A DNA stretch of 64,000 nt from NCBI GenBank assembly GCA_031458695.1, contig JAVKJW010000001.1, positions 64,001 through 128,000 on the forward strand, read 5' to 3'. The notes beneath the pieces were generated by a model. That model searched no databases. It was not told where the DNA came from and saw only the letters and a program-made list of their open reading frames with translations. This DNA is from Candidatus Thermofontivivens primus. Its GTDB lineage: Bacteria; Sysuimicrobiota; Sysuimicrobiia; Sysuimicrobiales; Thermofontiviventaceae. A program made the translations under genes and the position numbers. How positions within the stretch are numbered: position 1 is the stretch's first letter; the number at the start of each line of letters is the position of its first letter. Below, in pieces: positions 965 to 34,546 of this stretch.

Positions 965-1438
965 CTAAATCTCCCGACGAGGATCTCGCCCCGAGGCACC
1001 GGGGTATGGTTCGGTCAACATCTCCTTGGTATAGATCAGGGAGTCCCGTGTATACCCCGCCAGCTCGTACTCGTGACCCAGCACAATGGCGCCTGTTGGG
1101 CAGGCTTCCTCACAGAATCCGCAGAAGATGCAACGGAGCTCGTTGATCTGGAAGATCTCCGCGTACCGTTCACCCTTAGAGACCTGGTGGTCGGGAGTGT
1201 TCTCCGCAGCCTTCACATAGATCGCCTGTGAGGGGCAGACGATGACACATAGCTCACACCCGACGCACCGCTCCATCCCGTCGGCGTAAAGGGTCAGCCA
1301 GTGCCTTCCCTTGTAGCGAGCTGCCACGCGTGGTTTCTCCTCAGGATAGGCCACGGTGACCGGGCGGCGGAACAAGTAGCGGAAGGTCACCGCAAGCCCT
1401 TTGACCATGGCCAGCGCCTGAGTTGCGTACCGCGTCAT
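965..1438 (-). CDS. nuoI: NADH-quinone oxidoreductase subunit I
   Basis: Two 4Fe-4S motifs, CVGCELCVIVCP and CIFCGFCEEACP; YPEEK. Confidence 0.97.
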   Translation of the reverse strand: MTRYATQALAMVKGLAVTFRYLFRRPVTVAYPEEKPRVAARYKGRHWLTLYADGMERCVGCELCVIVCPSQAIYVKAAENTPDHQVSKGERYAEIFQINELRCIFCGFCEEACPTGAIVLGHEYELAGYTRDSLIYTKEMLTEPYPGASGRDPRREI

Positions 1439-1457
1439 CGCTCTATCTCCTTTGCCA

Positions 1458-2447
1458 TTACATCCCCTTAGGGAGCACCATCACCACCGCAGTCGCCAGG
1501 ACGTTCGCTACTCCCAACGGAACCAAGACCTTCCACCCGAGGGCCATGAGCTGGTCGTAGCGCACCCTGGGGAGGGTTGCACGGATCCAGATGAACACCG
1601 AAACGAACCCGAAGACCTTGAGAAGGAACCACAAAGGTGCAGGAAGCCATGGCCCGTGCCATCCTCCCCAGAACAGCGTTACGGCGAGGGCGCTCATGGT
1701 GACCACGTTGATGTACTCAGCCACGTAGTACATGGCGAACTTAAAGCCTCCATACTCGATGTGGTAGCCTGCAATGAGTTCGTGTTCAGCCTCGGGAAGG
1801 TCAAAGGGGGAACGGTTTGTCTCAGCCACCCCGGCGATGAAGAAAAGGAGGAAGGCCACGGGCTGCGTAACCACAAACCAGACACGTTCCTGCGCCTTCA
1901 CGATCTCCACAAGGCTCAGCGATCCTGCCTGAAGCACCACGGAGATCACTGCAAGGCCCAGGGCCAGCTCGTAGCTGATCAGCTGAGCCGTGCTCCTGAG
2001 GCTCCCCAGGAGGGCATACTTGTTGTTCGCCGACCATCCCCCCAGGACAATCCCGTAGACCCCCAGGGAGGAGATCGCCAGGACCAGAAGGATCCCCACG
2101 TTCACATCGGCAAGGTAAAGAGGCACCTCTCTCCCAAAGATCCGAACCTCGGGGCCGAACGGGATCACCGCGTAAACGAGCAAGGCGGTGACCATGGAGA
2201 GGCCAGGTGCCAACCAGTACACCAGAAGATCCGCCCCCCTGGGGACGAAGTCTTCCTTCACCAAGAGCTTGATCCCGTCTGCAAGAGGCTGGAGGAGACC
2301 AAAGGGGCCGACACGATTTGGGCCGATACGAACCTGGAATCGCCCAAGCATCCTTCGCTCCAGGAGCGTCATGTAGGCACACGCCGTGAGGAGCAAGAAA
2401 ACAAGGAAAGCGCTCTTGAGAGCCATGATGCCAATCTCTCCAGGCAT
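1458..2447 (-). CDS. nuoH: NADH-quinone oxidoreductase subunit H
   Basis: QVRIGPNRVGPFGLLQPLADGIKL, ETNRSPFDLPEAE, PRVRYDQLM. Confidence 0.98.
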   Translation of the reverse strand: MPGEIGIMALKSAFLVFLLLTACAYMTLLERRMLGRFQVRIGPNRVGPFGLLQPLADGIKLLVKEDFVPRGADLLVYWLAPGLSMVTALLVYAVIPFGPEVRIFGREVPLYLADVNVGILLVLAISSLGVYGIVLGGWSANNKYALLGSLRSTAQLISYELALGLAVISVVLQAGSLSLVEIVKAQERVWFVVTQPVAFLLFFIAGVAETNRSPFDLPEAEHELIAGYHIEYGGFKFAMYYVAEYINVVTMSALAVTLFWGGWHGPWLPAPLWFLLKVFGFVSVFIWIRATLPRVRYDQLMALGWKVLVPLGVANVLATAVVMVLPKGM

Positions 2448-2453
2448 AGCGAT

Positions 2454-14731: not shown

Positions 14732-16255
14732 GTGAGGATGGAGGACGGGTTCATCTGTCAGGTGGGGAGCGTGCCAGGAGGCAGCGCGGGGGGGAAGCGA
14801 GAGATCTACCTCCTTAAGGCGAAGGAGCTGCCTCCGGAAGTCATTGCTGTCACCTTTGCCAAGACAAGCCGCAGCCCTCAATCATTTCGAGAGATTGCCT
14901 CAGAGCTCACAAGTGAAAAATCGGCGGAGTTCCACGAGAAGTGGGTCTTAGGATACGGCCACGCCTCTGTGGCCGAACACGCTGTCCTGCACATCGCCCT
15001 GGAGAACGTCTCCCGGCTCGCCATCGAGGCCCTGGAGTCGACCCGCCTCGCCTCCTACACGGAGAAGTCCACGCGCTACCAGATCTTCAGCGCGTTCTAC
15101 CTCCCTCGGAGGATCGTCCAATCTCCCTTCGCCGACCTGTATGTGGAGACGTGCAACCACCTGTTTGCGACCTACCACAGCTTCCTTGACCCCCTCCGGC
15201 GCCTCATCCAAGAATGGTACCCAAGAAGGGAAGGGGAGTCGGACCGGGCGTATGCAAGTCGCATCCATTCTCGATACATTGATGTGTGCCGTTACCTCCT
15301 TCCCTGTGCTACCCTTGCCAACGTAGGTGTGACCATCAACGCCAGGAGCCTTGAGCACATGATCTCCAAGATGCTCTCCCACCCTCTCGAGGAGGTACGG
15401 GCGATTGGAGAGGAGCTCAAGACTACTGCAGCCCAGGAAACTCCGACTCTGGTCAAGTACGCCGCCCCGAATCCCTACCTCATAGAAACCCAAGCCGTCC
15501 TCAAGGACCTTGCCAGAGGGGCAGGGAGGCAAGGGAGCATGGGAGAAGAAGAGGAATCTGTGCGACTTGTGGATTATACCCCCGACGCGGAGATCAAACT
15601 TGCGGCCAGCTTGCTCTATCGGTACGGAGGCGGTTCCTATCCTCAGGCCTTGCACTATGCGAGGAGCCTCCCCCGCCACGCACTGGAGCGGATTCTCCAG
15701 GAAGCCCTCTGTCGCCTGGGGCGGTTCGATGTCCCACTACGCGAGTTCGAACACATCACCTACACTTTCGACATCCTCTGCGACCAGGGAGCCTACTTCG
15801 ATCTGAAACGCCATCGCATGGCTACACAGTCCCCCCAGAGCCCAACTGTGGAGAATGGATATGCGATCCCCAAAGCCATTGAAGAAGCCGGGCTGCGCCC
15901 TGCTTTTGAGCAGTCCATGGAGATGGCCACAGAGGCCTACCGGCGTATCTCCAAGACATTCCCAGAGGAGGCCGCCTACCTCGTCACGAACGCGCACAAC
16001 CGGCGGTTCCTCCTCACCTGCAACCTCCGCGAGCTCTACCACCTCGTCTCGCTTCGGAGCCGGAGCAACGGGCATTTCGCTTACCGACGGATCGCCCTGC
16101 GGATGTACGAGCTGGTCAGAGAGGTCCACCCGCTTCTTGTGCGCTACCTTCCCCTGGAGCAGCCCGTCCCAACGAGCGAGGAGCTCACGGCGCAGTTCTT
16201 TGCGACAACCTGCCACATCCCCAAGTCAACGGAGTACACCAGCTCCAGGTCGTGA
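14732..16255 (+). CDS. thyX: FAD-dependent thymidylate synthase with tandem ThyX domains
   Basis: GHASVAEHA, SYTEKSTRY and NARSLEH in the first half; PLREFEH, RHR and NLRELYH in the second half. Confidence 0.88.
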   Translation: MRMEDGFICQVGSVPGGSAGGKREIYLLKAKELPPEVIAVTFAKTSRSPQSFREIASELTSEKSAEFHEKWVLGYGHASVAEHAVLHIALENVSRLAIEALESTRLASYTEKSTRYQIFSAFYLPRRIVQSPFADLYVETCNHLFATYHSFLDPLRRLIQEWYPRREGESDRAYASRIHSRYIDVCRYLLPCATLANVGVTINARSLEHMISKMLSHPLEEVRAIGEELKTTAAQETPTLVKYAAPNPYLIETQAVLKDLARGAGRQGSMGEEEESVRLVDYTPDAEIKLAASLLYRYGGGSYPQALHYARSLPRHALERILQEALCRLGRFDVPLREFEHITYTFDILCDQGAYFDLKRHRMATQSPQSPTVENGYAIPKAIEEAGLRPAFEQSMEMATEAYRRISKTFPEEAAYLVTNAHNRRFLLTCNLRELYHLVSLRSRSNGHFAYRRIALRMYELVREVHPLLVRYLPLEQPVPTSEELTAQFFATTCHIPKSTEYTSSRS

Positions 16256-18934: not shown

Positions 18935-19618
18935 ATGGTGCGGCTTGTGTGGTACGGGCACGCCTGCTGGTCCATTGAGGGAGACAAAGCCACGATCCTC
19001 ATCGATCCGTTCATCACAGGGAACCCCGAGGCTCCAACCACAGCAGACAAGGTGAAAGCGGACTACATCATCGTGACCCATGGGCATGGAGACCACATCG
19101 GCGACACTGTAGACATCGCCAAGCGCACAGGGGCCACGGTCATTAGCAACTACGAGATCACCAGCTACTGCCAGGCGAAGGGAGTCCAGAACGTTCATCC
19201 CCTGCATCTCGGCGGCGGTTTCAACTTCCCCTTCGGCCGGGTGAAGCTTACTATCGCCCACCACGGCTCCGGTCTCCCCGATGGCTCTTATGGGGGGAGC
19301 GCCGCGGGGGTGATCCTAGAACTTGGAGGGAAGCGCCTCTACCATGCCGGGGACACGGCCCTCTTCCTCGACATGCAGCTCATCGGGCGAGGCGGGCTGG
19401 ACGCAGCAATGATCCCCATCGGCGACAACTTCACCATGGGGCCTGACGATGCCCTGGAGGCAGTGAAGCTGCTCCAGCCCAAGATCGTCTTCCCCATGCA
19501 CTACGGGGCATTCGACGTGATCAAGCAGGACCCGCAGACGTGGAAGACACGCGTGGAAGCGGAGACACAGACAAAGGTGGTGATCTTGCGACCAGGTGAG
19601 GGATACGCGCTCGATTGA
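18935..19618 (+). CDS. UPF0173 metal-dependent hydrolase (MBL fold)
   Basis: WYGHA, IDPFITGNP, THGHGDHIGD, YHAGDT, PIGDNFTMGP, PMHY. Confidence 0.93.
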   Translation: MVRLVWYGHACWSIEGDKATILIDPFITGNPEAPTTADKVKADYIIVTHGHGDHIGDTVDIAKRTGATVISNYEITSYCQAKGVQNVHPLHLGGGFNFPFGRVKLTIAHHGSGLPDGSYGGSAAGVILELGGKRLYHAGDTALFLDMQLIGRGGLDAAMIPIGDNFTMGPDDALEAVKLLQPKIVFPMHYGAFDVIKQDPQTWKTRVEAETQTKVVILRPGEGYALD

Positions 19619-19643: not shown

Positions 19644-19675
19644 ACTCAGTCACTCCGTCACTGAGTCACTGGTCA
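19644..19675. repeat. 8-bp tandem micro-repeat upstream of the PlsY fusion
   Basis: ACTCAGTC ACTCCGTC ACTGAGTC ACTGGTCA. Confidence 0.55.
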
Positions 19676-21423
19676 TGGAGATGAGAAGTCTCCTTGTTGC
19701 ATTCTTCGTTGCATACCTGTGGGGCGCGCTACCTTTAGGCTTTTTGGCCGTCAAGTCCACGCGGAAGGTGGATATCCGGCGCCTGAGCCCTTACAACGTG
19801 GGATTCCGCCCACTCCTTGCCCTTGCTGGCCCCGCCGCCGTGGGGGCTTTCTTTCTGGACGTGGCCAAGGGAGCGCTCCCTCCCTTGCTCTCTTGGATGA
19901 TCCGCCCTGAGCCAGGATATGCCGTTGCAGCTGCCCTTGGCGTTCTCATCGGGCACCTCTACTCCCCCTATTTCCTCTTCACCGAGGGATCCTTCCCAAG
20001 GGCTAAAAGCGTAGGGACTGCAGCGGGCGCGGCAGGGGGGTTGTGGCTGGTGGGCTTCCTTCCTCTCCTCCCCTTGCTCTTTGCGCTGGGAGTCTGGATG
20101 GCCACCATTGCCCTGCCAAGGTTATGGGGAAGATGGGGGTACCCGTCCCTCGCCTCCGTCCTCGCTGCATTGACCCTGGCGATCGGCCTGGGGGTATCCC
20201 GAACTCCGCATGCTGGCATCTTTTTTGGCATCGCGCTCTGCGTGCTCGTGCTGTGGCGCCATAAGGAGAACCTGGGACGCATCGCCGATGGGCTCGAACC
20301 GAGGCTCGGCGAGTACCTCCCCGTCCCTGGCCTGGGGGAGGAGGTCGGGTGTGCCTTCTTGATCCACCCCATGAGCCCCCTCGACTGGTGGCAGTCCAAC
20401 CGTTTTCGCTGGCTCCGCCCCTTAGCCGACCGGGGGATCATTCCCTTCTCCCTCCTCCGCTGGCTGAGTCGGTATATCCGTCCCATGAAAGTGGACGAGA
20501 TCCGCTCCATCACGACCACCGAGGGGAAGCGGGCAAGGGTCTATCTCTTAGGGGTCCCCCTCCTTCCCGACCAGATCAAAGGCGAGCCAGCCCTGGCGCT
20601 TCGCCGCACGATCCAAGCAGCACGGCTCGCCAGGGACCTCGGAGCGGTGGTCATGGGCTTGGGCGCGTACTGGTCCGTGGTAGGCCAGAAGGGGATTGAA
20701 GTACAAGAGCAGAGCGAAATCGTCATTACCAATGGAGGGGCATTTACGGCAGGAACGGTCAGGGCGGCCGTCCCGCAGATCCTTGGGCGGCTCCAGGAGA
20801 AAGGGATCTCCCCCAGGCAGGCCACTGCGGCAGTAGTGGGCGCCAACGGTGTGGTTGGGTTCGGTATCTGCCGCATGATCGCCGGCGAGGTGGGACGTTT
20901 GATCATGGTAGGCACCGACCTCGGGCGCCTGGAGCGCTCGCGGCAGCGCCTCGCGAGCAGGTTCCCCAGGACAACCATCGAGATCACCACCGACCTTCGA
21001 CGCATCCGCGAGGCAGATGTGATCTTTACGGCCACCAACACCCCGGAGGCGGTGGTGTATCCGGAGCATGTGAGGGAAGGAGCGCTTATCTACGACCTGG
21101 GGAGACCTGCCGACGTCCACCCCTCTGTCGCCCAGGTCCCGAGGGTGGAAGTGATTCCCGGGGGGGTGGTCCGTCCTCCCGGGAACCCCACTGGCCGCAT
21201 CGATCTTGGGTACGGCCCCGGTCTCTTCCCCGCCTGTCTCGCAGAGACCGTGATCATCGCCTTAGACGGAGCTTACGAACGCCGTAGCCTTGGGGAGAGG
21301 ACGCGCACCGAAAATATCGAGTATTTCGTGCGAAGGGCCGAGGAGATGGGTTTCCGGGTGGTTACAGAGGCTCCAGACACGAGATCCCAGGTCTCCCTCG
21401 CCGCTTCTCCCACGCACTCCTGA
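19675..21423 (+). CDS. Fusion: PlsY-like membrane acyltransferase plus acyl-ACP/CoA reductase-like (AAR) NAD(P)-binding domain
   Basis: N-terminal YLWGALP, LDVAKG, IGHLYS, RHKENLGRIADGLE; C-terminal AFLIHP, GLGAYWSVV, TNGGAFT, VVGANGVVG, DLGRPADV, PACLAE. Confidence 0.8.
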   Translation: MEMRSLLVAFFVAYLWGALPLGFLAVKSTRKVDIRRLSPYNVGFRPLLALAGPAAVGAFFLDVAKGALPPLLSWMIRPEPGYAVAAALGVLIGHLYSPYFLFTEGSFPRAKSVGTAAGAAGGLWLVGFLPLLPLLFALGVWMATIALPRLWGRWGYPSLASVLAALTLAIGLGVSRTPHAGIFFGIALCVLVLWRHKENLGRIADGLEPRLGEYLPVPGLGEEVGCAFLIHPMSPLDWWQSNRFRWLRPLADRGIIPFSLLRWLSRYIRPMKVDEIRSITTTEGKRARVYLLGVPLLPDQIKGEPALALRRTIQAARLARDLGAVVMGLGAYWSVVGQKGIEVQEQSEIVITNGGAFTAGTVRAAVPQILGRLQEKGISPRQATAAVVGANGVVGFGICRMIAGEVGRLIMVGTDLGRLERSRQRLASRFPRTTIEITTDLRRIREADVIFTATNTPEAVVYPEHVREGALIYDLGRPADVHPSVAQVPRVEVIPGGVVRPPGNPTGRIDLGYGPGLFPACLAETVIIALDGAYERRSLGERTRTENIEYFVRRAEEMGFRVVTEAPDTRSQVSLAASPTHS

Positions 21424-23251: not shown

Positions 23252-24088
23252 TTAGAAGTCTTGCTCCTGGAATGCCCGGGTGGCAAGCCACAGAGGGATC
23301 ATCACCCAGGCCACGAGCGAGACAGCGATGAGCGTCTTCCCGAGGACGGACCCGGCCAGTTCCCCAAGGATCGCTCCTCCCGGTCCCAGGGAGGTTTTCG
23401 CTCCCACAAGCATGAGAACCACCACCCGCACTGTGTCCATGGGGTTCGCCAGGACAGAGGAAAGGAGGATCGGCCTCAACCACTCCCCGCCAAAGAGGAT
23501 GGAGACGCCTAGGACCATCAGGTCATAGAGCACGCCAAGGAGGATCCAGAGTGCAAGCGCCCCGCCGAGAGCTTTCATCCTGTTCCTGGCAACAATGGAA
23601 ACCAACGCTCCAAGCCCGAGGAAGACCATGCACAGGAGTATGGAAAGAACCACCAGGACGGCGTATGCCACCAACTCAGAGAGTCCGGCCCTGAGGGCAA
23701 TGACTACCCCGGAGATCCCGAGGGCCCAGAGAAGGCCCGCACTCATGGCCCCGCAAGCCCCAAGGTATTTCCCCACGACCACCTCCCGCCGCGTGATGGG
23801 CTGGGCCAGGAGAACCTCCGTATCCCCTTGCTCTGGGGAAAAGGCCAGGACCCCGAGGGCTAGGGCATTCACAGGGATGAGGAAGGTGATGAGGTTGACT
23901 AAGCTTGTGGCGGTGCGGGCAAATCCCACAAACCGAGCGTATCCCCCGAGGCTCAGACCCAGGTATGAGACCCCTAGCGCCAGGATAGCGAGGAGGAGGG
24001 CGAAGGCCCAAGACCAGCGACTCCTCGCTGTGAGTTCGAATTCCCGGCTGGCAATTTTCCATATCGCTGTCACTACAGCTCCCCTCAC
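23252..24088 (-). CDS. nosY: ABC permease, N2O reductase maturation
   Basis: 6 TM helices, EVLLAQPITRREVVVGKYLG, NPMDTVR; located in the nos cluster. Confidence 0.88.
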   Translation of the reverse strand: MRGAVVTAIWKIASREFELTARSRWSWAFALLLAILALGVSYLGLSLGGYARFVGFARTATSLVNLITFLIPVNALALGVLAFSPEQGDTEVLLAQPITRREVVVGKYLGACGAMSAGLLWALGISGVVIALRAGLSELVAYAVLVVLSILLCMVFLGLGALVSIVARNRMKALGGALALWILLGVLYDLMVLGVSILFGGEWLRPILLSSVLANPMDTVRVVVLMLVGAKTSLGPGGAILGELAGSVLGKTLIAVSLVAWVMIPLWLATRAFQEQDF

Positions 24089-24564
24089 TCCGATCCCTCT
24101 CCTTGCCTACGGACGAACTCGAGGGCCTCATGGAAGGTCCAGATCTTCGCTCCCTCCCCCGCGAACCGCTCCGCCTCTTCCCTGCTGTGGAACGCAAACA
24201 GGCCATAGTACATGGGAGTGTACAAGGACGCGCGGACATAGAAGGCCCCTTCCGCACGGATCCACTGCTTCGTCGTCCAGTCGTGCACAAACATGGCCCG
24301 CACGCCCTCCCCCTGGGGATGGTGTTTCACACGGTAGAGAAGCATGCACCCGATATCACAGAACTTGGCGACGCCCTCCTCGGTCACGAGCTCCGCGGCG
24401 TGCGGTTCCTCCCTGATGACCATCCCGCACTCCGCACACGTCTCCACGCCGAGGAGGATCTGCTTTGGCTTCACCTCCCCTGACCTTTCTCGAAGGTAGG
24501 AGAAGGTGATCACCAATCCTATCGCCACAGCGAAAGCAAGGATCAAGGGATAGACCCGTCGCAT
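24085..24564 (-). CDS. nosL: NosL-family copper chaperone (copy 2)
   Basis: CAECGMVI, FCDIGC, TPMYYG; N-terminal TM anchor. Confidence 0.88.
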   Translation of the reverse strand: MRRVYPLILAFAVAIGLVITFSYLRERSGEVKPKQILLGVETCAECGMVIREEPHAAELVTEEGVAKFCDIGCMLLYRVKHHPQGEGVRAMFVHDWTTKQWIRAEGAFYVRASLYTPMYYGLFAFHSREEAERFAGEGAKIWTFHEALEFVRRQGEGSE

Positions 24565-24571
24565 CGTCCCT

Positions 24572-25063
24572 TCAATGCTGCATCCCTTTCATCATCTTCC
24601 GGCGCTCAACTGCGTACTTCATGGCCTCCTGGAAGGAGAGAACCTTCCCTCCATGTGCCTTGGCGAAAGCTCTGGCATCCTCGGCCTTGCGGAAGGCGAA
24701 CAGGCCATAGGTCATGGGCGTGCGCTGGGAGGTAGAGACGAAGAAGGCGGACCGTCCCTCGATCCATCCCTGCGTCCTCCAATCCCTCACAAGGACCGAG
24801 CGCACCTCCTTTTCAGCGAGGCCATGGGCATGGATGTAGTTAAAGAGGCAACCTAAGTCGTCAAAGCGGAATTGTCCTGCCGCGGTCACGACCACTGCTC
24901 CATGGCGTGCATCCCGGATGACCATGTTGCACAGGGCGCACCGGTCCACTCCCTCCTGGATGAGCGGGATCCTTTCGGGAGGCGCTACCTGCCCGAACAG
25001 AACCAGCGCACCCCCCAGAGTAAGAATCAGAACCACTCCGATTCCTATCGCGGCTCTTCTCAT
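24572..25063 (-). CDS. nosL: NosL-family copper chaperone (copy 1)
   Basis: CALCNMVI, FDDLGC, TPMTYG; N-terminal TM anchor. Confidence 0.88.
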   Translation of the reverse strand: MRRAAIGIGVVLILTLGGALVLFGQVAPPERIPLIQEGVDRCALCNMVIRDARHGAVVVTAAGQFRFDDLGCLFNYIHAHGLAEKEVRSVLVRDWRTQGWIEGRSAFFVSTSQRTPMTYGLFAFRKAEDARAFAKAHGGKVLSFQEAMKYAVERRKMMKGMQH

Positions 25064-25965
25064 TCCTTCTCACTCCCCTTCGATCCTTGAAGGATTTCGT
25101 TCACGACTTCCTCGATATCCGGCTCCTCGGTCGAAAACCCGAGCACACGAACCCCAGCCTCCTGGATCGCCTGCAGCACCCGGAGCCTCTCCCCAGGAGG
25201 ACAGGAAACAATAAGGTGGCCGTCCTCGAAGATTGCAGGATGGCTTGCCAAGCCTGGGATGCTGCAGATCGCTTCATCCGTTGGGACACGCACGCGCAGC
25301 CGCGGCCGGAACCGTTCCCTGAGTGCATCGATCCCATCCTTCACCACAAGCCTGCCCTCTTTCAAGATAGCCACAGAAGTCGCCATCTCCTCACTGTCTT
25401 GGATGACGTGCGAGGAGAAGATCACGATCTTCCCGTTCGCCCGCCACCTTTGGACAATTGTCCGGAGGGCCTGCCTTCCCTCGACGTCGAGGCTCAGGGT
25501 TGGCTCATCCAAAAGAAGAACTGTGGGATCGCCCAGGATAGCCACAGATAGCCCCAGCCGCTGTTTCATCCCCCCTGAATAGGTCCCCACAGGTCTCTGG
25601 AGAAAGTCCTCAAGGCACATGATCTCGACCACCTCCCTCACAGCACTGGGTGGAACGCCGCGGATACTGGCATAGAAGAACAGAATCTCTTCCCCAGCGA
25701 GGGAAGCGGGGAAGTCCACGCGCTGGGGGAGGTAGCCGATGCACCGTTTCGCTTCCTTAGGCTGGCGCCAGGGATCATATCCCTCCACAGAGACACGGCC
25801 GCAGGTGGGCCGCACGAGGCCGGCGAGGATCTTCAAAGTGGTGCTCTTCCCTGCTCCATTGGGACCAAGGAGCGCTAGGACCTCCCCAGGTTCGACGTGG
25901 AAGGAGAGCTCCTCTACGGCCGTGACCTCCCCATACCGCTTCGTCAGACCCTCGACCTGGACCAT
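25060..25965 (-). CDS. nosF: ABC ATP-binding protein, N2O reductase maturation
   Basis: GPNGAGKST, YSGGMKQRLGL, LLLDEP; lies between nosD and nosL/nosY. Confidence 0.9.
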   Translation of the reverse strand: MVQVEGLTKRYGEVTAVEELSFHVEPGEVLALLGPNGAGKSTTLKILAGLVRPTCGRVSVEGYDPWRQPKEAKRCIGYLPQRVDFPASLAGEEILFFYASIRGVPPSAVREVVEIMCLEDFLQRPVGTYSGGMKQRLGLSVAILGDPTVLLLDEPTLSLDVEGRQALRTIVQRWRANGKIVIFSSHVIQDSEEMATSVAILKEGRLVVKDGIDALRERFRPRLRVRVPTDEAICSIPGLASHPAIFEDGHLIVSCPPGERLRVLQAIQEAGVRVLGFSTEEPDIEEVVNEILQGSKGSEKE

Positions 25966-27416
25966 GCTCCAGACCTCCTGCGACCTGCCCTCCACAAAAC
26001 CATTGTGGTCCCAAAGACCAACAAGGCCGCGAAAACCCCACTAGCTTTACTGCCCGGCCGGATGGGCCCAGTTGGGAGGGCGAAGGGGATATCTTCCTGG
26101 CGCATCCGAGGGGAGCGATCCTCTTCCCGCGGGAGCTCCAGGACTGGGAGCGCCTCCTCGGCGAAGGCCAGCGCCCGGACGGCGGGGCTGTGAAATAGGA
26201 TCCGTACCTCTGGGTAGTTCTCGCTGAGGAAACCAAACAGCGAGCCAACTTTGTAAGGAATGTCCCCGGTCCCGTCTCCGTCGAGGTCGTAGCCGCGGTA
26301 ATCGCTCCAGTAGTTGCCTTCCCACCTGTTCAGGAGCCGCCCCCGGTTGAGGTGGACTTGGTCCCCGTTCTCCACGAAGGCATTCCCTGTGAAGAGGTTG
26401 TTGATCGAGCTAGAGAGAATCCTAGCGCCAATGGTGTTGGCCGCAATGAGATTACGGCGGATACGATTCTCCCTGCTGTTGTCCATAAAGATACCGACCT
26501 CGTTGTCCACGATGCTGTTTTCTTCAATGAGAGAATCCTCACAGTCCTTCAGGAAAAGGCCGTAGGCGCCATAGCCGCGACTGTGGGCAAACAGGTTCCT
26601 GCGCGCCACGATGCGCTTCGCGTACATGGGTGCGGCCGCCACGCCGTTGTACTGGAAGACATTTCCCTCGAAGGTATTGTCGTCGGAGTACATGTAGTGG
26701 AGGCCAATACGCCCATAGAGCACGTAGTTACCGCGGATGCGGTTCCCATTGGAGAACTCGAAGTACAGACCGTCGCGGGGGTACAAAATCATGTTTCCTT
26801 CGATGTGGTTCCTATGGGAGCCAAACAAGTGAATGGCATTCCCCCTGTCGTGTTCACCGACCCCAAGACCTTGGATCCGGTTCCCCACGATGGTGTTCCC
26901 ACTCGCCCCAAGCAGGAAGATGCCAAAGAGCGCATTCGTAATCTCGTTCCCGCGGATGGTGTTGTGATCGCCAAGGACCTTCACAGCTGCCTCGTTCCTC
27001 CACAGCCGCCGCCCGCTCCCCCGGATGATGAACCCTTGGACGGTGGCACCCCCTGCTTTGATGGTGAGGACGTCTCCCTGGCCGCCCCCGTCCACCACCG
27101 GCCTCCCCTCACCCACCAGCCGCACCGCCTTGGAAATCACCAACCGCTCACGATAGACTCCCGGCTGGACGAGGATGGTATCTCCCTCGTGCGCGCGGAC
27201 GAGAGCCTGGCCAATCGTTGCGAATCCCTCCCTTCCCACAATCCAGGTATGTCCCCGCCCTTCCTCCTGCAGAAACGCCTTCCCACCTTCCTCCCTTATG
27301 GGAGAGGATACACGGGAGAGAGGGGGTGTAGGTGCGCCCTGGATCGTAGCCCACGGACTCGCCGCGGCAGTCCAAGCAAGGAGGAGCGATGTTAGGAACG
27401 CGATCTTCCGCGCCAT
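25944..27416 (-). CDS. nosD: N2O reductase maturation protein NosD (beta-helix)
   Basis: Start MARKIAF with signal peptide. RGNAIHL, RDGLYFE, GLHYMYS, GNYWSDYRGYDLDGDGTGDIPY. Confidence 0.93.
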   Translation of the reverse strand: MARKIAFLTSLLLAWTAAASPWATIQGAPTPPLSRVSSPIREEGGKAFLQEEGRGHTWIVGREGFATIGQALVRAHEGDTILVQPGVYRERLVISKAVRLVGEGRPVVDGGGQGDVLTIKAGGATVQGFIIRGSGRRLWRNEAAVKVLGDHNTIRGNEITNALFGIFLLGASGNTIVGNRIQGLGVGEHDRGNAIHLFGSHRNHIEGNMILYPRDGLYFEFSNGNRIRGNYVLYGRIGLHYMYSDDNTFEGNVFQYNGVAAAPMYAKRIVARRNLFAHSRGYGAYGLFLKDCEDSLIEENSIVDNEVGIFMDNSRENRIRRNLIAANTIGARILSSSINNLFTGNAFVENGDQVHLNRGRLLNRWEGNYWSDYRGYDLDGDGTGDIPYKVGSLFGFLSENYPEVRILFHSPAVRALAFAEEALPVLELPREEDRSPRMRQEDIPFALPTGPIRPGSKASGVFAALLVFGTTMVLWRAGRRRSGAWSRSRV

Positions 27417-27985
27417 GGGCTTGACCTCCAGAAGGCCAGCACGACCAGGACGAAGGCGATCACGTGGAGCAACGTCCCCACATGGAATGTCGCGGAAGTG
27501 ATGAAGTTGGCCAAGCGCTGGCTCCCTAGGATCGGAGGTGTGAACGGAGGCACCCGGATGGGCGCGTCGGGATCGAGCGTGTGACCGTACAGGTATAAAC
27601 GGTACCACAGATCCAGGATCCCAAGAAGGGCTACGGGCGCGAGGACGATGAGGAGAAAGGGAATCCAGCGCCTGCCCGTCCACGCCGCCACTGTGGCAAG
27701 GAGGGCCACACCCAGGAAGGCTACTGGGATGAGTCGAAGCTCTGGGAAGTCCTCGGGCCGGATCTCCCGCATCCCCACGTAGTGGTTTAAGGTGTTAATA
27801 ATGTCCAGCTTCCCCCTCAGCCCCCAGGCATAGACGGCGAGGGTGAGTCCCTCTGGGTACTGAGGAGCGATGAGCCTCACCTGCCACAGGGGGAAGGCGA
27901 ACGAGAGAAGGACCAGAGCGGCGGAAAAGAGCAAGAGGCGGCGCTCCCACCTCCCGAGCTCTCCGCGCCCAATCCATCCCATCAT
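27392..27985 (-). CDS. nosB: Clade II nos membrane protein NosB
   Basis: PLW..L.APQYPEGL, INTLNHYVGM, YGHTLDPDAPI, PPILG; directly downstream of nosZ. Confidence 0.85.
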   Translation of the reverse strand: MMGWIGRGELGRWERRLLLFSAALVLLSFAFPLWQVRLIAPQYPEGLTLAVYAWGLRGKLDIINTLNHYVGMREIRPEDFPELRLIPVAFLGVALLATVAAWTGRRWIPFLLIVLAPVALLGILDLWYRLYLYGHTLDPDAPIRVPPFTPPILGSQRLANFITSATFHVGTLLHVIAFVLVVLAFWRSSPWRGRSRS

Positions 27986-28090
27986 CCTAGCTCCACCTCG
28001 CTTTTGGAGAGTGTGGTGTCGCGAACACAGGCAGAGGAGGGTGCCCCTTGGGCATCCCTCCCCCTGCCGCTTTGGCCTTTCGTTTTCGTG

Positions 28091-29929
28091 TTACTTCTTT
28101 GGTTTCACCAAAAGGTATCCCTGCATCTCCTGGTGCAGCGCGGAACAGAAGTTGGTGCAGTAGAACGGGTAGACACCTGGTTTTTCCGCTACAATGGAGA
28201 TTGTCTTTGTTTCCCCGGGCTGGATCTCCATGTTCACGTTGTACAGGGAGATCCCAAACCCATGGGTTAAGTCCTCATCCAGGTCGTTATTGGTGATGTG
28301 GAAGAAGACCCGGTCCCCCTGGTTCACTTCCACGTTGTCGGGAACGTAGCGGCTGCGGATGGCGTACATGTAAACGTGGACCTCGTTCCCCTTGCGCTCG
28401 ATGCGAGCATCCTTGGGGCTCCACACCGAATTGGGGCGCTTGGTTTCTTTGGGGTGGATCTCGATGGCCTTGATCTTATCCGCCTTGACGATCTGGGCAT
28501 AGTGGGGCTCGGGGTCGACAGGGGCATCGGCGATGACGCGCATCTTCCCACCAGCGATGTCGATGAGTTGCAGACTCTCAGGATGCGACGGTCCCACACT
28601 CAAGAACCGGTCCTTAGCCATCTTGTTGAGCGAGACCAGGTACTTGCCATCTGGAGAAGCGGAGTCTCCTTCCGCCGCGGCCAAGTGGCCAACGTTGTAG
28701 TTGATCTGCACCTTGTCCACGACCTTCCAGGTACCCAGCTGCCACTTAGCGATGGCGCTGTCCAAGAAGAGGCTCGTGTAGGCGAACCCTTTGTCGTCGA
28801 ACTGGGTGTGGAGTGGACCAAGGCCCACAGGCACCTCGGCCACGCGCACAGATTCGTAGTTGAGCACAGGAAGCCCGCGCACCGTGCCCGCGAAGTCTTT
28901 CTTCTGGATCGCCTCCTGGATCTTGGCGAATTCGTAGACGGTTACCGTGGGCTGGAGCTTGCCACTGGCCACAATGAACCGCCCATCAGGAGAGACGTCC
29001 ACACCGTGTGGGCTCTTCGCCACTGGGATCAGGTACACGAGCCCGGGGACCTTCGTGGGATCCACGACTTTCACTCCGGCGATGGCGGTAAACTTGCCCG
29101 CCTTGACGGCCTTCTCGACTTCTCTCCAGTTCAAGACAATGATGTAGTCGCGGTCGTTCTTGGAGGCGTTCTTCTCGAGCACTGTGGTGGCTTCCTCGGT
29201 GTTGTAGGTGGTGAGGAAAGCCCACCCCTCGCTCACCTTCTTCCCTGCGTCGGAGAGGTCATACTGCCATGGTGGGAGGAGGAGCTCCCACCCTACGCTC
29301 ATCTCCCCGGTCTTCGGATCCACAGCGATGGCTGCAAGCACGCCGAAATATTTCTTCCCGTACTCAGAGAGGGGGGCATAGGTTCCAGTAGGGATGGGGG
29401 CGGAAAAGCGGCTCGGCATCATAAAGTACTCTGTATTCGGGGTGACGAAGGCGGCGCAGTGGGGGCCCATGATGTTCGGCACAGGTCCGAGGATTTGACC
29501 TACGGTGAAGGTCTTCAGGTCAATGCGGGCAACACGGTTGTTGGCATTATCATTGACAAAAAGCCACCGCCCGTCATACTCACCCCTGGTCTCCGAGAGA
29601 GCAGGGTGGTGGACATCACCCCACGTGTACCCTCCAAGCATCCTCTTGGAGTGTTCGTCGTACCCCCACCCTGTGGCGGGATCGGGAGTAAAGACGGGGA
29701 TGGTGCGGATCCGTCGCATGGAGGGAATTCCAAAAACGTAGACCTGTCCGGAATGCCCTCCAGAGGCGAACATGTAATACTCATCGAGCTTACCTGGAGG
29801 GACAAACGCCTTTCCAGGTTCCTGGGCTCCACTCTCCCTCCCTCCCAGCTGAGGAAGGACAATGGCCAAGGCGATGACGACAAGCGTCACCGCTCCGAGG
29901 ATCCCGGCGGACTTCACCCTTCTCCTCAT
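28091..29929 (-). CDS. nosZ: Nitrous oxide reductase, clade II (Sec-type or membrane-anchored)
   Basis: SGGHSGQ; CuZ histidines in DVHHP, GPHC, KSPHG, GPLHT, VGHL and EPHY; CuA ligands THGF and CTNFCSALHQEM; no twin-arginine consensus. Confidence 0.97.
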   Translation of the reverse strand: MRRRVKSAGILGAVTLVVIALAIVLPQLGGRESGAQEPGKAFVPPGKLDEYYMFASGGHSGQVYVFGIPSMRRIRTIPVFTPDPATGWGYDEHSKRMLGGYTWGDVHHPALSETRGEYDGRWLFVNDNANNRVARIDLKTFTVGQILGPVPNIMGPHCAAFVTPNTEYFMMPSRFSAPIPTGTYAPLSEYGKKYFGVLAAIAVDPKTGEMSVGWELLLPPWQYDLSDAGKKVSEGWAFLTTYNTEEATTVLEKNASKNDRDYIIVLNWREVEKAVKAGKFTAIAGVKVVDPTKVPGLVYLIPVAKSPHGVDVSPDGRFIVASGKLQPTVTVYEFAKIQEAIQKKDFAGTVRGLPVLNYESVRVAEVPVGLGPLHTQFDDKGFAYTSLFLDSAIAKWQLGTWKVVDKVQINYNVGHLAAAEGDSASPDGKYLVSLNKMAKDRFLSVGPSHPESLQLIDIAGGKMRVIADAPVDPEPHYAQIVKADKIKAIEIHPKETKRPNSVWSPKDARIERKGNEVHVYMYAIRSRYVPDNVEVNQGDRVFFHITNNDLDEDLTHGFGISLYNVNMEIQPGETKTISIVAEKPGVYPFYCTNFCSALHQEMQGYLLVKPKK

Positions 29930-29978
29930 GGCACTGCCCCCTTTCTGTGCGGGCGGTTGATCCCACCCCATTTCGTTG

Positions 29979-30374
29979 TTATGGCTCGACAATGAGCTGG
30001 CCGACCATGTTCTGGTGGCTTGGACTGCACTTGATGTTGCACTGGAAGGGAAACGTTCCTTCTTCGCTTGCCACGAACTCCACGACCACGGGTTGCCCGG
30101 GGAAGATCAAATCGGTGTCGATGTCGTAATCCAGGAGTTGGAAACTGTGGGTCACGTCGTAGCTCATGAGCTTCAGACGCACCCTCTCCCCTTTGCGCAC
30201 CACGATCCTCGCTGGCTGGAAGCCGCCATGCTCAAAGGTATGGATGATGACGGTGATCTCCCGGACCCCTTCTGGGTGAGGCTTCTCCTTGAACTGGTAG
30301 GCGAAGATCCCCACAGGCAGGAGCACCACGATGGCGAAGACCACAATTGCCGCCACCACATCCGCTCTCCGCAT
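29979..30374 (-). CDS. Membrane-anchored CuA-type cupredoxin (CoxII-like domain)
   Basis: N-terminal TM helix; DVTHSF and CNIKCSPSHQNM (H..C-x3-C-x3-H-x2-M). Confidence 0.85.
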   Translation of the reverse strand: MRRADVVAAIVVFAIVVLLPVGIFAYQFKEKPHPEGVREITVIIHTFEHGGFQPARIVVRKGERVRLKLMSYDVTHSFQLLDYDIDTDLIFPGQPVVVEFVASEEGTFPFQCNIKCSPSHQNMVGQLIVEP

Positions 30375-30425
30375 CCCTTTTCCTCCTTAACCAACGACGA
30401 CAGGCGAGAAGGTGACTGGGTGATT

Positions 30426-31886
30426 CTACCCCAGGTACAGCGCCAGGAACACCAAGGTCCCTCCGATCAGATATGCTGTGAGAGGTACAGACGCTTTCCG
30501 CGCCTGCGCTTCCTCAAAGGTCTTGTGCAAAATCCCCGTACCGACAAAAACCGACCAGGCTAGCCCCACAAGCAACAAGGGGACCTGCAGGTAGGGGACG
30601 ATGCCAGGAGCATAAGGGGTCCAGGGATAGCTCTTCGTCCCGAAGAGGTCCCATCCCCAGCCAAAGGGATCTGACAGCACCGAGACGGCGTAGGAGATGT
30701 TGGGGAGGACGAACGCCAAGCTGAAGGCGATCCACCCGAACAGCCCCAGGGGGACGAGCGCATAACTCGTGTTCACGAAGACTTCAGAGAGGGGCACAGA
30801 GCGGGTTCCAGCAATTTTCCGCACCAGGGCGCTCATCCCCAGGTGAAGGCCTGGGGCAAGGACGAGGATGGAGCCAAGGAACATCCCGGCGTATCCAAGG
30901 AAGCCCCAACCTCCAAGGTTCGCCCAGCTCTTGAGAGTTCCCCACGGGCCGATCATGATGATGGAATACAGGATGGCGCTCCCCAGCATGATGAAGGCCT
31001 TGAACGCTTCGTCAAGTTTCCACCCCTTCTCCACCAGGAGATCCGTCCCGAATGGTCGCAGGTTGATGGTGATGTTCCCATAAGGGCAGGCCTTCACGCA
31101 CTCGGTGCAGAGGAGGCAGTAGGTGTTCCGTTCCATCCCCCCGCCCGGGAACTCGAAGTTGGGACAGCCATACCCGCCGATCCCTCCGACCTTGAGGCTC
31201 TCGGGGGTGCTGCCACGGTAACAGGATTTGAACCGGCACTGGCGGCAGACTTCTGCGTCGATCCGCCGGAGCTCTACGGGAGCAGCCATGGAGTAAAGCC
31301 CTAGGAACCCGCCCACGGGGCAAAGATAGCGGCAGAAGGCCCTGCGCTCGAACACCAGGTGCATGACCACCGCCACGGCCATGAGCCCTAGGAGAAGGAA
31401 CCCTGTCACCACGGGCCGCGTGGTCACAATCGGGCTGAACAGCGCGATGGTGAGGAAGCCGAAGTTGGCAAGCCACAGGTTCCTGAGCTGGCGGGGCCAT
31501 CTCTTGCCAAGGCCTAACCCTTGGCTGACGAAGCTCACGAAACTCTTGCGCTGTAGCCACTCCCCGAAGGCTGGGATGGGGCACATGGCGCACCATACCC
31601 TCGCCCCGAAGGGGACAAGAACGACGATCAAGAGGGCCCACCAGACGATCCAGACGAAGATGATGGAAAAGTTCTTGGCCCCCACGGGGATACCGAAGAT
31701 CCCAGAGAGGATGACGATGGTGAAGGCCAGGAGGTTGGGGACGATGAGGGTAAACTGGAACCACCTTTGGAAGACAAGCCAACGCAGGAAGGGTGCGAGC
31801 TGGAGGAGGTCCCTCTTCCAGCCTATCTTGACAGGCTTTGTTTCCGCGACCCGGGTAACCTTGGCCCCTACCGCCTCGTCGTCCAC
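30426..31886 (-). CDS. Polytopic membrane 4Fe-4S protein (NapH/NosH-like)
   Basis: WCAMCP and FCRYLCP (C-x3-C-P), CRQC..C..CP, CLLCTECVKACP; many TM helices. Confidence 0.85.
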   Translation of the reverse strand: MDDEAVGAKVTRVAETKPVKIGWKRDLLQLAPFLRWLVFQRWFQFTLIVPNLLAFTIVILSGIFGIPVGAKNFSIIFVWIVWWALLIVVLVPFGARVWCAMCPIPAFGEWLQRKSFVSFVSQGLGLGKRWPRQLRNLWLANFGFLTIALFSPIVTTRPVVTGFLLLGLMAVAVVMHLVFERRAFCRYLCPVGGFLGLYSMAAPVELRRIDAEVCRQCRFKSCYRGSTPESLKVGGIGGYGCPNFEFPGGGMERNTYCLLCTECVKACPYGNITINLRPFGTDLLVEKGWKLDEAFKAFIMLGSAILYSIIMIGPWGTLKSWANLGGWGFLGYAGMFLGSILVLAPGLHLGMSALVRKIAGTRSVPLSEVFVNTSYALVPLGLFGWIAFSLAFVLPNISYAVSVLSDPFGWGWDLFGTKSYPWTPYAPGIVPYLQVPLLLVGLAWSVFVGTGILHKTFEEAQARKASVPLTAYLIGGTLVFLALYLG

Positions 31887-32533: not shown

Positions 32534-33871
32534 TTACGTGGGCTTTTGGATCCCCAGCTTTTTCATCTTCCGCCAGAGGGTTGTCCTGTTGACCCCGAGG
32601 AGCTTGGCACAGCGACCGATGCGCCAGTGGGTAGCTTCCAGCATCGCCAGGATGCGCTCCCGCTCGCTGGTAGGAGACCTCGGGTTAGGTTCTCCCTGGC
32701 GTTGCTGAGGACGGGCGTACATGTGGGGAGGAAGGTGGGTGGGGAGGATCTCCCCTCCCCTGCAGAGGGCGAAGGCATAGCTCAGGATACCTTCCAGCTC
32801 CCTTACGTTACCGGGAAAGTCGTAGCTCAAGAGGAGGGAGAGGGCGTCCTGGGAGATCCCCGTGACCGACGGGTTCACCTCTGCCCGCAGGCGGTTCATC
32901 AAGCGCTCCGCCAGGAGAGGGATGTCCTCTTTTCGCTCCCGCAAAGGGGGGACGGCCAAGGTGATCCGTAGGAGGCGATCGGCGAGAGTCCTGTCAAACC
33001 GCCCCTCCTGGGCCAGGGCAGCGAGGTCCCGGCTCGTGCCAGCGAGGAATCTCGCATCGGAGGTGAGGACCTCGCGGCCGCCCACCCTGCTGAATCCTCC
33101 CCCATCGAGGAAGATGCGCAGCCGCTCTTGGAGCTGCGGGGATGTCTCAGCCACGTCCTCCAGGAAGACGCTCCCTCCCCGGCACAGCTCCAGGGCCCCC
33201 GGCCGGCCTGATGTGGCCCCTGGAAAGGCACCCTCCACGAACCCGAATAGCTCCCGCTCAAGAATCACTTCGGAGATTCCAAGGGTTCGCAGAGAGATGA
33301 ACACTCCTCCTGCCTTCAAGCTCATCCGGTGGATCGTCTCGGCTACCCAAGCTTTCTCCGTTCCCGGCTCCCCCAGGATGAGCACGGGCTCCGTGCTGTC
33401 GCGGATGTTCTCGATGGCCTCGTACAATCGGATCATCCCCTCGCTCCGCCCGCACAAGAATCCGAACTCCTTGCGCGTGCCGGCCTCCCTCTCCAGCGCC
33501 CGAAGGGCGGTTACGTCGCGGAGGATGCGCACCGCCGCAACAATGCGTCCCTTCCGGTCTCGCACGGGGACGGTGTGCACGCGGACGATACGGATCCCTC
33601 CGTCCTTGCGGAAGAGGAAGGTCTCGAAGTCGTCGGGGGCCTTCCCCGTCTCGAACATCTCCTGCATGTCGCATGTCCTCTGACAGAACCGCCCCGCGCA
33701 TACCTCAAAGCACCGTCTCCCCAAAGCCTCGTCCTTGCGGTAACCCGTCAGCCGTTCGGCAGCGCGGTTGAACCCTACCACACACAGCTCCCCGTCCACG
33801 GTCATGACCCCGTCCTCCATGGCGTCGAGGACGGATTCATAGCTGACGGTCTCCCGGGCACGCCACAGCAT
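32534..33871 (-). CDS. PAS-AAA+-Fis HTH (NtrC-family) transcriptional regulator with degenerate sigma54/ATPase motifs
   Basis: PAS domain with CFEVCAGRFCQRTC; GEPGTEK, ELFG..GAFPGA, FLEDV, PPLRERKEDI, FPGNVREL; HTH LGVNRTTLWRKMK. Confidence 0.9.
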   Translation of the reverse strand: MLWRARETVSYESVLDAMEDGVMTVDGELCVVGFNRAAERLTGYRKDEALGRRCFEVCAGRFCQRTCDMQEMFETGKAPDDFETFLFRKDGGIRIVRVHTVPVRDRKGRIVAAVRILRDVTALRALEREAGTRKEFGFLCGRSEGMIRLYEAIENIRDSTEPVLILGEPGTEKAWVAETIHRMSLKAGGVFISLRTLGISEVILERELFGFVEGAFPGATSGRPGALELCRGGSVFLEDVAETSPQLQERLRIFLDGGGFSRVGGREVLTSDARFLAGTSRDLAALAQEGRFDRTLADRLLRITLAVPPLRERKEDIPLLAERLMNRLRAEVNPSVTGISQDALSLLLSYDFPGNVRELEGILSYAFALCRGGEILPTHLPPHMYARPQQRQGEPNPRSPTSERERILAMLEATHWRIGRCAKLLGVNRTTLWRKMKKLGIQKPT

Positions 33872-33875
33872 TCCC

Positions 33876-34517
33876 TCATCCCTCCAAGATGCCCTTCATC
33901 AGGGCATACCGGACGAGTTCTGCTCGGCTCTGTAACCCAAGCTTCTCCATGATCCTGGCCTTATAAGCCTCCACCGTCTTGACGCTCAGGTGGAGCTGGC
34001 TTGCGATCTCCTTGTTCCCATAGCCAAGAGCCACGAGGCGGAGCACCTCGCGCTCCCTGGTGCTCAGTTCCTCCCTGCTAGTCCCCCCGTTTCGGATGAA
34101 CGAGTGCACAAGGACATGCGCAAGGGAAGGATCCACATAGACGCCCCCGGCATAGACAGTGCGAATGGCGTGGCACAGCTCGCTGGCAGGGGACTGCTTC
34201 ACCAGGTACCCAGACGCCCCCGCCCTCAGGAGGTAGCGGAGGTAGAGCTCGTCGGCGTGGATCGTGAGGACGAGGACCTTCACCTGGGGAACTGCTTCCT
34301 TGATGCGCTCCGTGGCCTCGATCCCGTTCATCCCGGGCATGCTGATGTCCATGAGGACGACATCTGGCACCAGGGTTTTGCACTTTTCATAAGCTTCCCA
34401 ACCGTTTGAGGCCTCGCCCACCACCACCATGTCGGCCTGGGATTCCAGGAGTGCGCGAAATCCAGCGCGAACCACTGCATGATCTTCGGCAATGAGGATC
34501 CGGATCTTCTCCTCCAT
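33876..34517 (-). CDS. NarL/FixJ-family response regulator (NreC-like)
   Basis: AEDHAVVRAGF, VLMDISMP, GASGYLVK, LSTREREVL..GYGNKEIA..SVKTVE. Confidence 0.93.
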   Translation of the reverse strand: MEEKIRILIAEDHAVVRAGFRALLESQADMVVVGEASNGWEAYEKCKTLVPDVVLMDISMPGMNGIEATERIKEAVPQVKVLVLTIHADELYLRYLLRAGASGYLVKQSPASELCHAIRTVYAGGVYVDPSLAHVLVHSFIRNGGTSREELSTREREVLRLVALGYGNKEIASQLHLSVKTVEAYKARIMEKLGLQSRAELVRYALMKGILEG

Positions 34518-34546
34518 CCTCCCAATCGCCCCTTTCGGGAACACTC

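Follow-up and report, generated by a model that had tools for sequence, protein, structure and literature searches.

Candidatus Thermofontivivens primus (assembly GCA_031458695.1) carries, in a 64,000-nucleotide stretch of contig JAVKJW010000001.1 (positions 64,001 to 128,000; this whole stretch is hereafter called the window, and coordinates count from its first letter), a single plus-strand gene in which a membrane domain of the PlsY fold is joined to a Rossmann reductase domain resembling acyl-acyl carrier protein (acyl-ACP) reductase (AAR). To judge from its homologues, the product belongs to a widely conserved two-domain membrane protein family, in which a PlsY-like and an AAR-like domain are combined. 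This combination was not described in the full-text literature that we searched, a body of text that covers few subscription journals. As to its function, we tentatively favour, at less than even chances, a role in which the fusion protein makes a fatty aldehyde at the membrane as the precursor of the alkylamine found in N-glyceroyl-alkylamine phosphoglycolipids.

Domain architecture of the fusion protein

The gene is one open reading frame (ORF) that runs to position 21423 from an ATG at 19675 or from an alternative TTG at 19615, the latter giving 602 aa. Because alignments of the homologues begin at about the ATG, the form of 582 aa plus stop (19675-21423, +) was adopted; no clear Shine-Dalgarno sequence was found upstream of the ORF. 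The N-terminal domain (residues 5-205; 19687-20289, +) has the same multi-helix membrane fold as PlsY of Aquifex aeolicus (PDB 5XJ5-5XJ9). The Pfam PlsY family, PF02660, matches residues 12-203 (E 3.2e-23, 83 bits vs a cut-off of 24.1), PlsY 5XJ5 matches with an E-value of 7.8e-14 by sequence and of 1.1e-31 with the family profile, and Foldseek aligns the domain with Aquifex PlsY 5XJ5-5XJ8 at TM-scores of 0.80-0.82 (normalised to the target) and 29-30% identity. Canonical PlsY is a stand-alone protein of ~200 aa, whereas the fusion adds a reductase of ~360 aa.

The C-terminal part, which follows an inter-domain linker (residues 206-231; 20290-20367, +), is a cytoplasmic reductase domain of the AAR/PigE-N/TamH-TR type (residues 232-565; 20368-21369, +), identified by sequence and by Foldseek. 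Pfam recognises a Rossmann domain in it (residues 381-494). The NCBIfam model for PigE (NF053554) matches through its N-terminal region (residues 273-562, E 1.5e-29, 102.9 bits vs a cut-off of 850), and the AAR model TIGR04058 matches residues 270-554 (E 6.8e-13, 48.6 bits vs a cut-off of 449.7). In sequence comparison the domain matches PigE 4PPM (E 2.9e-16) and AAR 6JZQ (E 2.9e-11); in structure comparison it matches AAR 6JZU/6JZZ (E 4e-19, TM-score 0.77-0.80 normalised to the target), followed by the carmabin TAD (9E4S/9E56) with TM-scores of 0.60-0.66, of which 9E56 gives 0.66. The PlsY equivalog model TIGR00023 was not passed either (72.4 vs a cut-off of 137.2 bits). On sequence criteria, the protein falls within the broad PlsY family of Pfam and within the AAR-like superfamily. 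Because these curated models were failed and PlsY motifs 1 and 2 are gone, we do not assign it as PlsY, AAR or PigE.

The original prediction had seen in this ORF a PlsY-fold membrane domain fused to an AAR-like Rossmann reductase, and the Pfam, NCBIfam and Foldseek matches bear this out. Its reading of the individual motifs also agrees with the DNA. The motif proposed to hold the catalytic Cys, PACLAE, which had been compared with FACFAE of AAR, lies at 21229-21246. In a profile alignment to AAR chain 6JZQ, Cys521 (codon 21235-21237, +), the predicted acyl-accepting nucleophile, falls on C294 of AAR inside FACFAE, and the dinucleotide-binding motif GANGVVG (GxxGxxG; 20839-20859, +) falls on GATGDIG; Cys521 is also aligned with the Cys of GCMAET in PigE. 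In the membrane half, SPYNVG (19786-19803, +) replaces GSGNxG of PlsY motif 1 and RAKS (19999-20010, +) replaces GGKG of motif 2, while motif 3, with RHKEN at 20257-20271, is kept, all as the prediction had it. The full motif 3 stretch, RHKENLGRIADGLEPR (20257-20304, +), conforms to the pattern HxxNxxRLxxGxE. The DxxKG and GH elements of PlsY are retained together with motif 3 (HxxN...E). When fusion proteins were aligned with canonical PlsYs from four other genomes, the motif 1 stretch of the window protein read SPYNVGFRPLLA where the canonical proteins have GSGNxGA/TxN.

The reductase domain shares with AAR of Synechococcus elongatus (6JZQ/6JZU) the fold, the aligned catalytic Cys and GxxGxxG, but the identity is 21-23% only and the fusion protein, unlike AAR, is membrane-anchored. 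Its best sequence matches are the reductase domains of PigE (4PPM) and TamH, with which it has the Cys motif C(M/L)AET in common. In those proteins, which belong to pigment pathways, the reductase shares its polypeptide with a class III transaminase, whereas here the partner is PlsY-like and a transaminase is neither fused nor adjacent: no class III aminotransferase (PF00202) was found in the fusion protein or among its neighbours at 8.7-37.9 kb of the window. The carmabin TAD, as far as its published description goes, resembles the domain in its AAR-like fold and in an invariant Cys next to the bound NAD; it is a weaker match (16-18% identity), stands at the end of nonribosomal peptide synthetase modules, and has a chemistry that is described as a proposal.

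An AlphaFold2 model built from an alignment of 81 sequences has a mean pLDDT (per-residue confidence) of 94 and a pTM (predicted TM-score) of 0.92. The latter value indicates a fixed arrangement of the two domains, and the modelled protein is therefore best described as a single rigid two-domain body.

Conservation of the two halves

The linker is the most conserved segment of the protein: over the 81 aligned members of the family, to which all counts in this section refer, its residues 205-231 have a mean pairwise identity of 64%, compared with 57% for the reductase half and 40% for the PlsY half. In the reductase half, C521, E524, G389, G392, D474, G476, P478 and D480 are invariant; the third Gly of GxxGxxG (position 395) is G in 67 members and A in 14. 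In the PlsY half, G43, D62, K65, H94 and E208 are invariant, and R109 (80 of 81), W194, K197 (80), E198 (78) and R202 (80) are nearly so, each being kept in 78-80 members. The remnant of motif 1 has P, S or A at position 39, N41 in 77 members and G43 in all. In the remnant of motif 2, R109 is followed at position 111 by K (59 members), R (20) or M (2), giving a family consensus of R-x-K/R-G/A/S. The motif 3 His (H196) is kept in 61 members and is replaced by Y, F or Q in members from Deinococcota and in those labelled as Bacillota.

In PlsY, the Ser and Arg of motif 1 (GSGNxGATNxxR) are essential according to mutagenesis work, and the GGKG loop of motif 2 has a role in binding glycerol-3-phosphate. 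Because both motifs have been lost, the PlsY-like domain of the window's clade is predicted to be no longer a standard acyl-phosphate:glycerol-3-phosphate acyltransferase, with a charged pocket (D62, K65, H94, R109, K/R111, K197, E198, R202 and E208) nevertheless kept. Such degenerate motifs, together with the loss of the motif 3 His in Deinococcota and the faster evolution of the PlsY half (40% vs 57% mean identity), would also fit a protein in which this half is a mere anchor for a membrane-tethered aldehyde former, the aldehyde being turned into a fatty alcohol, a hydrocarbon or a signal. We consider this improbable. The charged membrane-domain residues are invariant or nearly so in all of the aligned members, and for this reason the PlsY half appears to be under selection for more than anchoring; the linker, too, is the most conserved part. 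A cyanobacterial-type alkane pathway was rejected, as aldehyde-deformylating oxygenase (ADO, PF11266), with which AAR works to make alkanes, was not found in the source genome, which is 96% complete, while the control search gave a match in Synechococcus.

Distribution of the fusion family

A word-indexed search returned at least 120 full-length fusions, all with E <= 1e-162, and an exhaustive search with HMMER, covering 1.84 billion representatives, returned 4346 proteins at E <= 1e-3, of which 140 had E <= 1e-30. In a scan of species-representative genomes, 267 relatives were found. The best 80 of these come from metagenome-assembled genomes (MAGs) of Armatimonadota (including 'Candidatus Fervidifonticultor' and 'Ca. 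Nitrosymbiomonas'), from Thermus, Meiothermus, Calidithermus, Oceanithermus, Deinococcus and Thermaerobacter, and from a few MAGs labelled as Bacillota or Actinomycetota. The full-length fused frame thus recurs in hundreds of proteins, including those of cultured Thermus, Meiothermus and Deinococcus, which rules out a chance ORF and disposes of the assembly artefact that the original prediction had itself named as a way in which it might fail. In public records, the fusion goes under the names 'glycerol-3-phosphate acyltransferase' and 'predicted amino acid dehydrogenase' or 'amino acid dehydrogenase'.

The family is nearly universal in Deinococcota, the phylum of Thermus scotoductus. The reductase domain was detected at E <= 1e-20 in 292 of the 301 sampled genomes (one of them, G254, unpublished), mostly with E-values of 1e-95 to 1e-125 and almost always in frames of ~560-600 aa; the nine genomes without a match may be incomplete. 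In addition to the fusion, PlsX, a PlsY of canonical type (~210 aa, 170-182 bits) and further PlsY paralogues occur in each of four genomes, those of T. scotoductus, M. hypogaeus, D. radiomollis and one Thermaerobacter. Since PlsX and canonical PlsY are present as well, the fusion in Deinococcota would represent an added and retained function rather than simply the housekeeping PlsY. In the order to which the source organism belongs, apparently one of Armatimonadota, the distribution is sparser: six of the 26 genomes counted (which include the unpublished G317) have the fusion, namely the source genome (G000), G308, G309, G313, G321 and G325.

Other partners of the AAR-like domain were also seen among the library proteins. 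The domain is fused to class III aminotransferases in P0194, P0202 and P0265, to a PlsC-type acyltransferase (PF01553) in P0216, to SRPBCC/START-like lipid-binding domains in P0153 and P0155, and to PilZ plus SRPBCC in P0197.

A proposed role in the synthesis of alkylamine lipids

Since the 1980s, Deinococcus and Thermus have been known to contain N-glyceroyl-alkylamine phosphoglycolipids. We connect the fusion with these lipids because its C-terminal domain is homologous to acyl-thioester reductases with the Cys and GxxGxxG kept, and because its orthologues are nearly universal in Deinococcota, whose hallmark lipids carry N-glyceroyl alkylamine. In the mechanism that we envisage, the PlsY-fold domain would sit in the membrane, joined rigidly by the conserved linker to the cytoplasmic reductase of the AAR/PigE/TamH family. 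A long-chain acyl group would pass from an activated donor to form a thioester on Cys521, the donor being acyl-ACP, which serves all characterised relatives, or perhaps an acyl-phosphate bound in the PlsY-like domain. Reduction of this thioester by NAD(P)H would release a fatty aldehyde at the membrane surface, and the PlsY-like domain would probably bind the lipid substrate or product or hand it over. The aldehyde would then probably be converted by a separate transaminase to a long-chain alkylamine, which would enter the N-glyceroyl-alkylamine phosphoglycolipids. We hold the aldehyde-forming role of the reductase, which is suggested by homology, more firmly than the link to the alkylamine pathway, for which it is the distribution of the family that provides the pointer.

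The chemistry has precedents in the related enzymes. AAR, PigE (PMC8341465) and TamH (PMC9594044) are described as taking an acyl group from a phosphopantetheine thioester to a conserved Cys and releasing it as an aldehyde; PigE is reported to reduce a thioester (PMC8341465), and the AAR-like TR domain of TamH, together with the transaminase of that protein, is reported to convert C12 acyl-ACP to the C12 amine in vitro (PMC9594044). For the N-glyceroyl-alkylamine lipids of T. thermophilus, a 2022 paper reported the enzymes responsible for the third hydrophobic chain as unidentified (PMC9636437). Genome papers on Meiothermus and Oceanithermus state that N-glyceroyl alkylamine lipids occur in these genera, and Moorella thermoacetica, a member of Bacillota, is a reported maker of N-glyceroyl alkylamines. 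To go by the title of work by Bale and colleagues from 2025, lipids of this kind are reportedly dominant in several Bacillota.

Several findings weigh against this proposal. Alkylamine-making Bacillota such as Moorella thermoacetica were not among the best 80 of 267 or the best 120 of 545 fusion matches, in searches of which none was aimed at those genomes. Moreover, no gene neighbourhood is shared across lineages among 80 related loci, in which ORFs were called crudely (spurious opposite-strand frames included) and clustered, with Pfam run on 15 representatives. The neighbours were a small-multidrug-export-like protein and a PNP_UDP_1 protein in Thermus, an esterase, TerC and a methyltransferase in Meiothermus, and a deaminase and a DEAD helicase in Armatimonadota. 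At five Deinococcus loci (L064, L066, L067, L075 and L080), the next gene after the fusion, in the same orientation, is a PLD-like one (PF13091) of ~517 aa, which in three of the five has a glycerophosphodiester phosphodiesterase (GDPD) gene beside it. This is a lipid-related context confined to Deinococcus, and the PLD-like gene was rejected as a shared member of the pathway, as tblastn found no match in the source genome. Nor did a partner transaminase emerge. The source genome has eight class III aminotransferases, and the one most similar to the TamH/PigE transaminase, the only one of the eight tested as a partner, has orthologues with 57-63% identity in 24 of the 25 other genomes of the order, with or without the fusion. 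Because it is present regardless of the fusion, this aminotransferase is uninformative as a partner. The same side of the balance holds the gene content and the motifs of certain carriers, described next, which bear on the main alternative as well.

Phospholipid synthesis as an alternative

According to this alternative, the fusion is a self-sufficient phospholipid starter, in which the acyl group of acyl-ACP would be loaded on Cys521 and delivered to glycerol-3-phosphate in the PlsY-like domain, either directly or as acyl-phosphate, which phosphorolysis of the thioester would yield in the manner of GAPDH-type enzymes. It would thereby replace PlsX or FakA plus PlsY. We regard this role as unlikely, though not negligibly so. 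In its favour, PlsX, for which 21 of the order's 26 genomes gave a match, was missed in the 96%-complete source genome as well as in G309, G312, G316 and G321. Three of the six carriers of the fusion (G000, G309 and G321) but two of the 20 non-carriers are thus without a PlsX match, counts that come from related genomes rather than independent samples and that include G309, which is only 72% complete. In G321 (96% complete), a fusion of the degenerate type (locus L098, ~1384-3240) is the only match to PF02660, and searches for PlsX and FakA (PF02734) gave no match. This genome encodes two acyltransferases of the PF01553 family; one of them, in a 518-aa frame, could serve as its glycerol-3-phosphate acyltransferase and start phospholipid synthesis in place of the fusion. 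In G005, another Armatimonadota genome, a near-canonical fusion is the only PlsY match, with PlsX present.

The source genome itself contains one PlsC and, on contig 53 (~62386-64555, -; locus L001), a cluster of degV, a 194-aa PlsY paralogue and a fakA-like (Dak2) gene, which counts against this alternative. The original prediction had called for a search for a canonical plsY elsewhere in the genome. The cluster does supply a second gene of the PlsY family, but not a canonical one: its motif 2 is kept (GGKGVAT), while the His and Asn of motif 3 are gone. Similarly short PlsY matches, which run from the start of the model to no further than about position 150-156 of 164, were also seen in several relatives.

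The motifs of the PlsY half form a gradient among the fusion clades when aligned with the canonical PlsYs. A distant clade, carrying Patescibacteria or Berkelbacteria labels where named, is canonical at all three motifs, and an Armatimonadota clade, here called 'GSHN', is near-canonical (GSHNIGATN, FxRGKxVAT, HKEN). The window's clade has SPYN, RAKS and RHKEN, and the Deinococcota fusions have SAYN and RGRG, with the motif 3 His also gone (R[YF]KEN). The distant clade comprises P0132, P0133, P0145, P0190 and 24 more proteins, which are 29-36% identical to the window protein; Patescibacteria and Berkelbacteria are generally regarded as lacking fatty-acid synthesis. A quick tree of 53 rows (33 of the 70 library proteins in the alignment, 11 loci, five relatives and four Patescibacteria) sets the Patescibacteria clade apart with a support of 100 from the 'GSHN' clade, the clade of Deinococcota plus Thermaerobacter and the window's clade, and does not resolve the branching order among the latter three. 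In this tree, the fusion of G325 (locus L101), a relative from the order of the source organism, nests inside Thermaceae and has motifs of the Deinococcota type (SAYNLGLES, RYKENLGR), which suggests lateral transfer or a mis-binned contig.

Because the Patescibacteria and 'GSHN' clades keep the motifs, and because of the gene content of G321 and G005, the ancestral fusion is suggested to have served ordinary glycerol-3-phosphate acylation. A further point in favour of the phospholipid starter is that the homologous carmabin TAD has been proposed, in what is presented as a proposal only, to carry out non-reductive acyl transfer from its Cys (bioRxiv 10.1101/2024.10.28.620694). However, Deinococcota keep the fusion despite having PlsX and canonical PlsY, the invariant dinucleotide motif points to redox chemistry, and in the window's clade the glycerol-3-phosphate loop of motif 2 and the Ser of motif 1 are gone.

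Possible catalytic roles of the PlsY-like domain

If both halves of the protein are catalytic, two further roles can be considered. In the first, which would extend the alkylamine proposal, the aldehyde would be converted to the alkylamine by a separate transaminase, and the PlsY-like pocket would then move a glyceroyl group from an acyl-phosphate donor, for example 1,3-bisphosphoglycerate, onto the amine in the membrane. The product, N-(3-phosphoglyceroyl)alkylamine, would be a close shape-mimic of lysophosphatidate, and the reaction would amount to PlsY chemistry in reverse polarity. We put this version forward as a rather long shot.

The second is the proposal of the original prediction, that the fusion is a synthase of ether-, diol- or wax-type lipids, in which the altered PlsY-like domain would couple the aldehyde or alcohol made by the reductase to a backbone resembling glycerol phosphate. 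The channelling of the aldehyde or alcohol to the membrane domain, which the prediction envisaged, is conjectural. The fusion of AAR-like domains to the PlsC-type acyltransferase of P0216 and to SRPBCC domains, a recurrent pairing with glycerolipid enzymes, would be in keeping with it. A comparable protein is ElbD of Myxococcus ether-lipid synthesis, which likewise has a fatty-acyl reductase and a glycerolipid acyltransferase in one polypeptide; its reductase, however, is of a different family and its acyltransferase is of the PlsC rather than the PlsY type. PlsY chemistry is acyl transfer from acyl-phosphate, and ether formation by a PlsY fold is without precedent. The long-chain 1,2-diol glycolipids of some Thermus and Meiothermus strains would fit such a synthase, but diols occur in only some Thermaceae, whereas the fusion is nearly universal in Deinococcota. 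The wax-ester synthase WS/DGAT (PF03007) was not found in the source genome, in a search that had no working positive control. The prediction had further linked the fusion to unusual lipids of Deinococcota and Thermomicrobia; the former association is supported by the 292 of 301 genomes, but no Thermomicrobia appeared in the best 80 of 267 loci, which leaves the diol link to Thermomicrobia without support here. Taken with these points, a synthase of this kind seems to us improbable.

Gene context in the window

The gene upstream of the fusion (18935-19618) encodes an MBL-fold hydrolase. Pfam was run on 27 of the 66 ORFs called in the window, those at 8.7-37.9 kb, and revealed a nos cluster, thyX, MBL hydrolases and an ArsR regulator; no lipid genes were found among these 27 ORFs. 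Shortly after the 3' end of the fusion gene, the minus strand carries the nitrous-oxide reductase cluster (23252-31883), which by Pfam consists of an ABC-2 permease (23252-24085), two NosL genes (24085-25060), an ABC ATPase (25060-25992), nosD (25944-27680), a nosZ-like gene (28091-29989) and a 4Fe-4S membrane protein (30426-31883), with cupredoxin proteins also in the cluster. Genes for a sigma-54 activator and a response regulator occupy 32534-34541. In addition, a 507-aa ORF at 14732-16252 (+) contains two stretches that match ThyX (PF02511), and looks like a tandem-duplicated ThyX.

Conclusions

In this study, we identified a PlsY-AAR fusion that almost every sampled member of one phylum carries, model organisms amenable to genetics among them, yet that public records list simply as an acyltransferase or an amino acid dehydrogenase. 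Were it to act as a phospholipid starter, bacteria would have a third route into phospholipid synthesis, one that needs neither PlsX nor fatty-acid kinase. Were the PlsY-like pocket to transfer glyceroyl groups, the fusion would be the missing enzyme of the 'third chain' anchor in Deinococcota-type phosphoglycolipids, and the source organism and the other carriers outside Deinococcota would make N-glyceroyl-alkylamine lipids. With respect to the role that we tentatively favour, the fusion provides a concrete candidate for the enzyme that supplies the alkylamine chain of the phosphoglycolipids of Deinococcus and Thermus.

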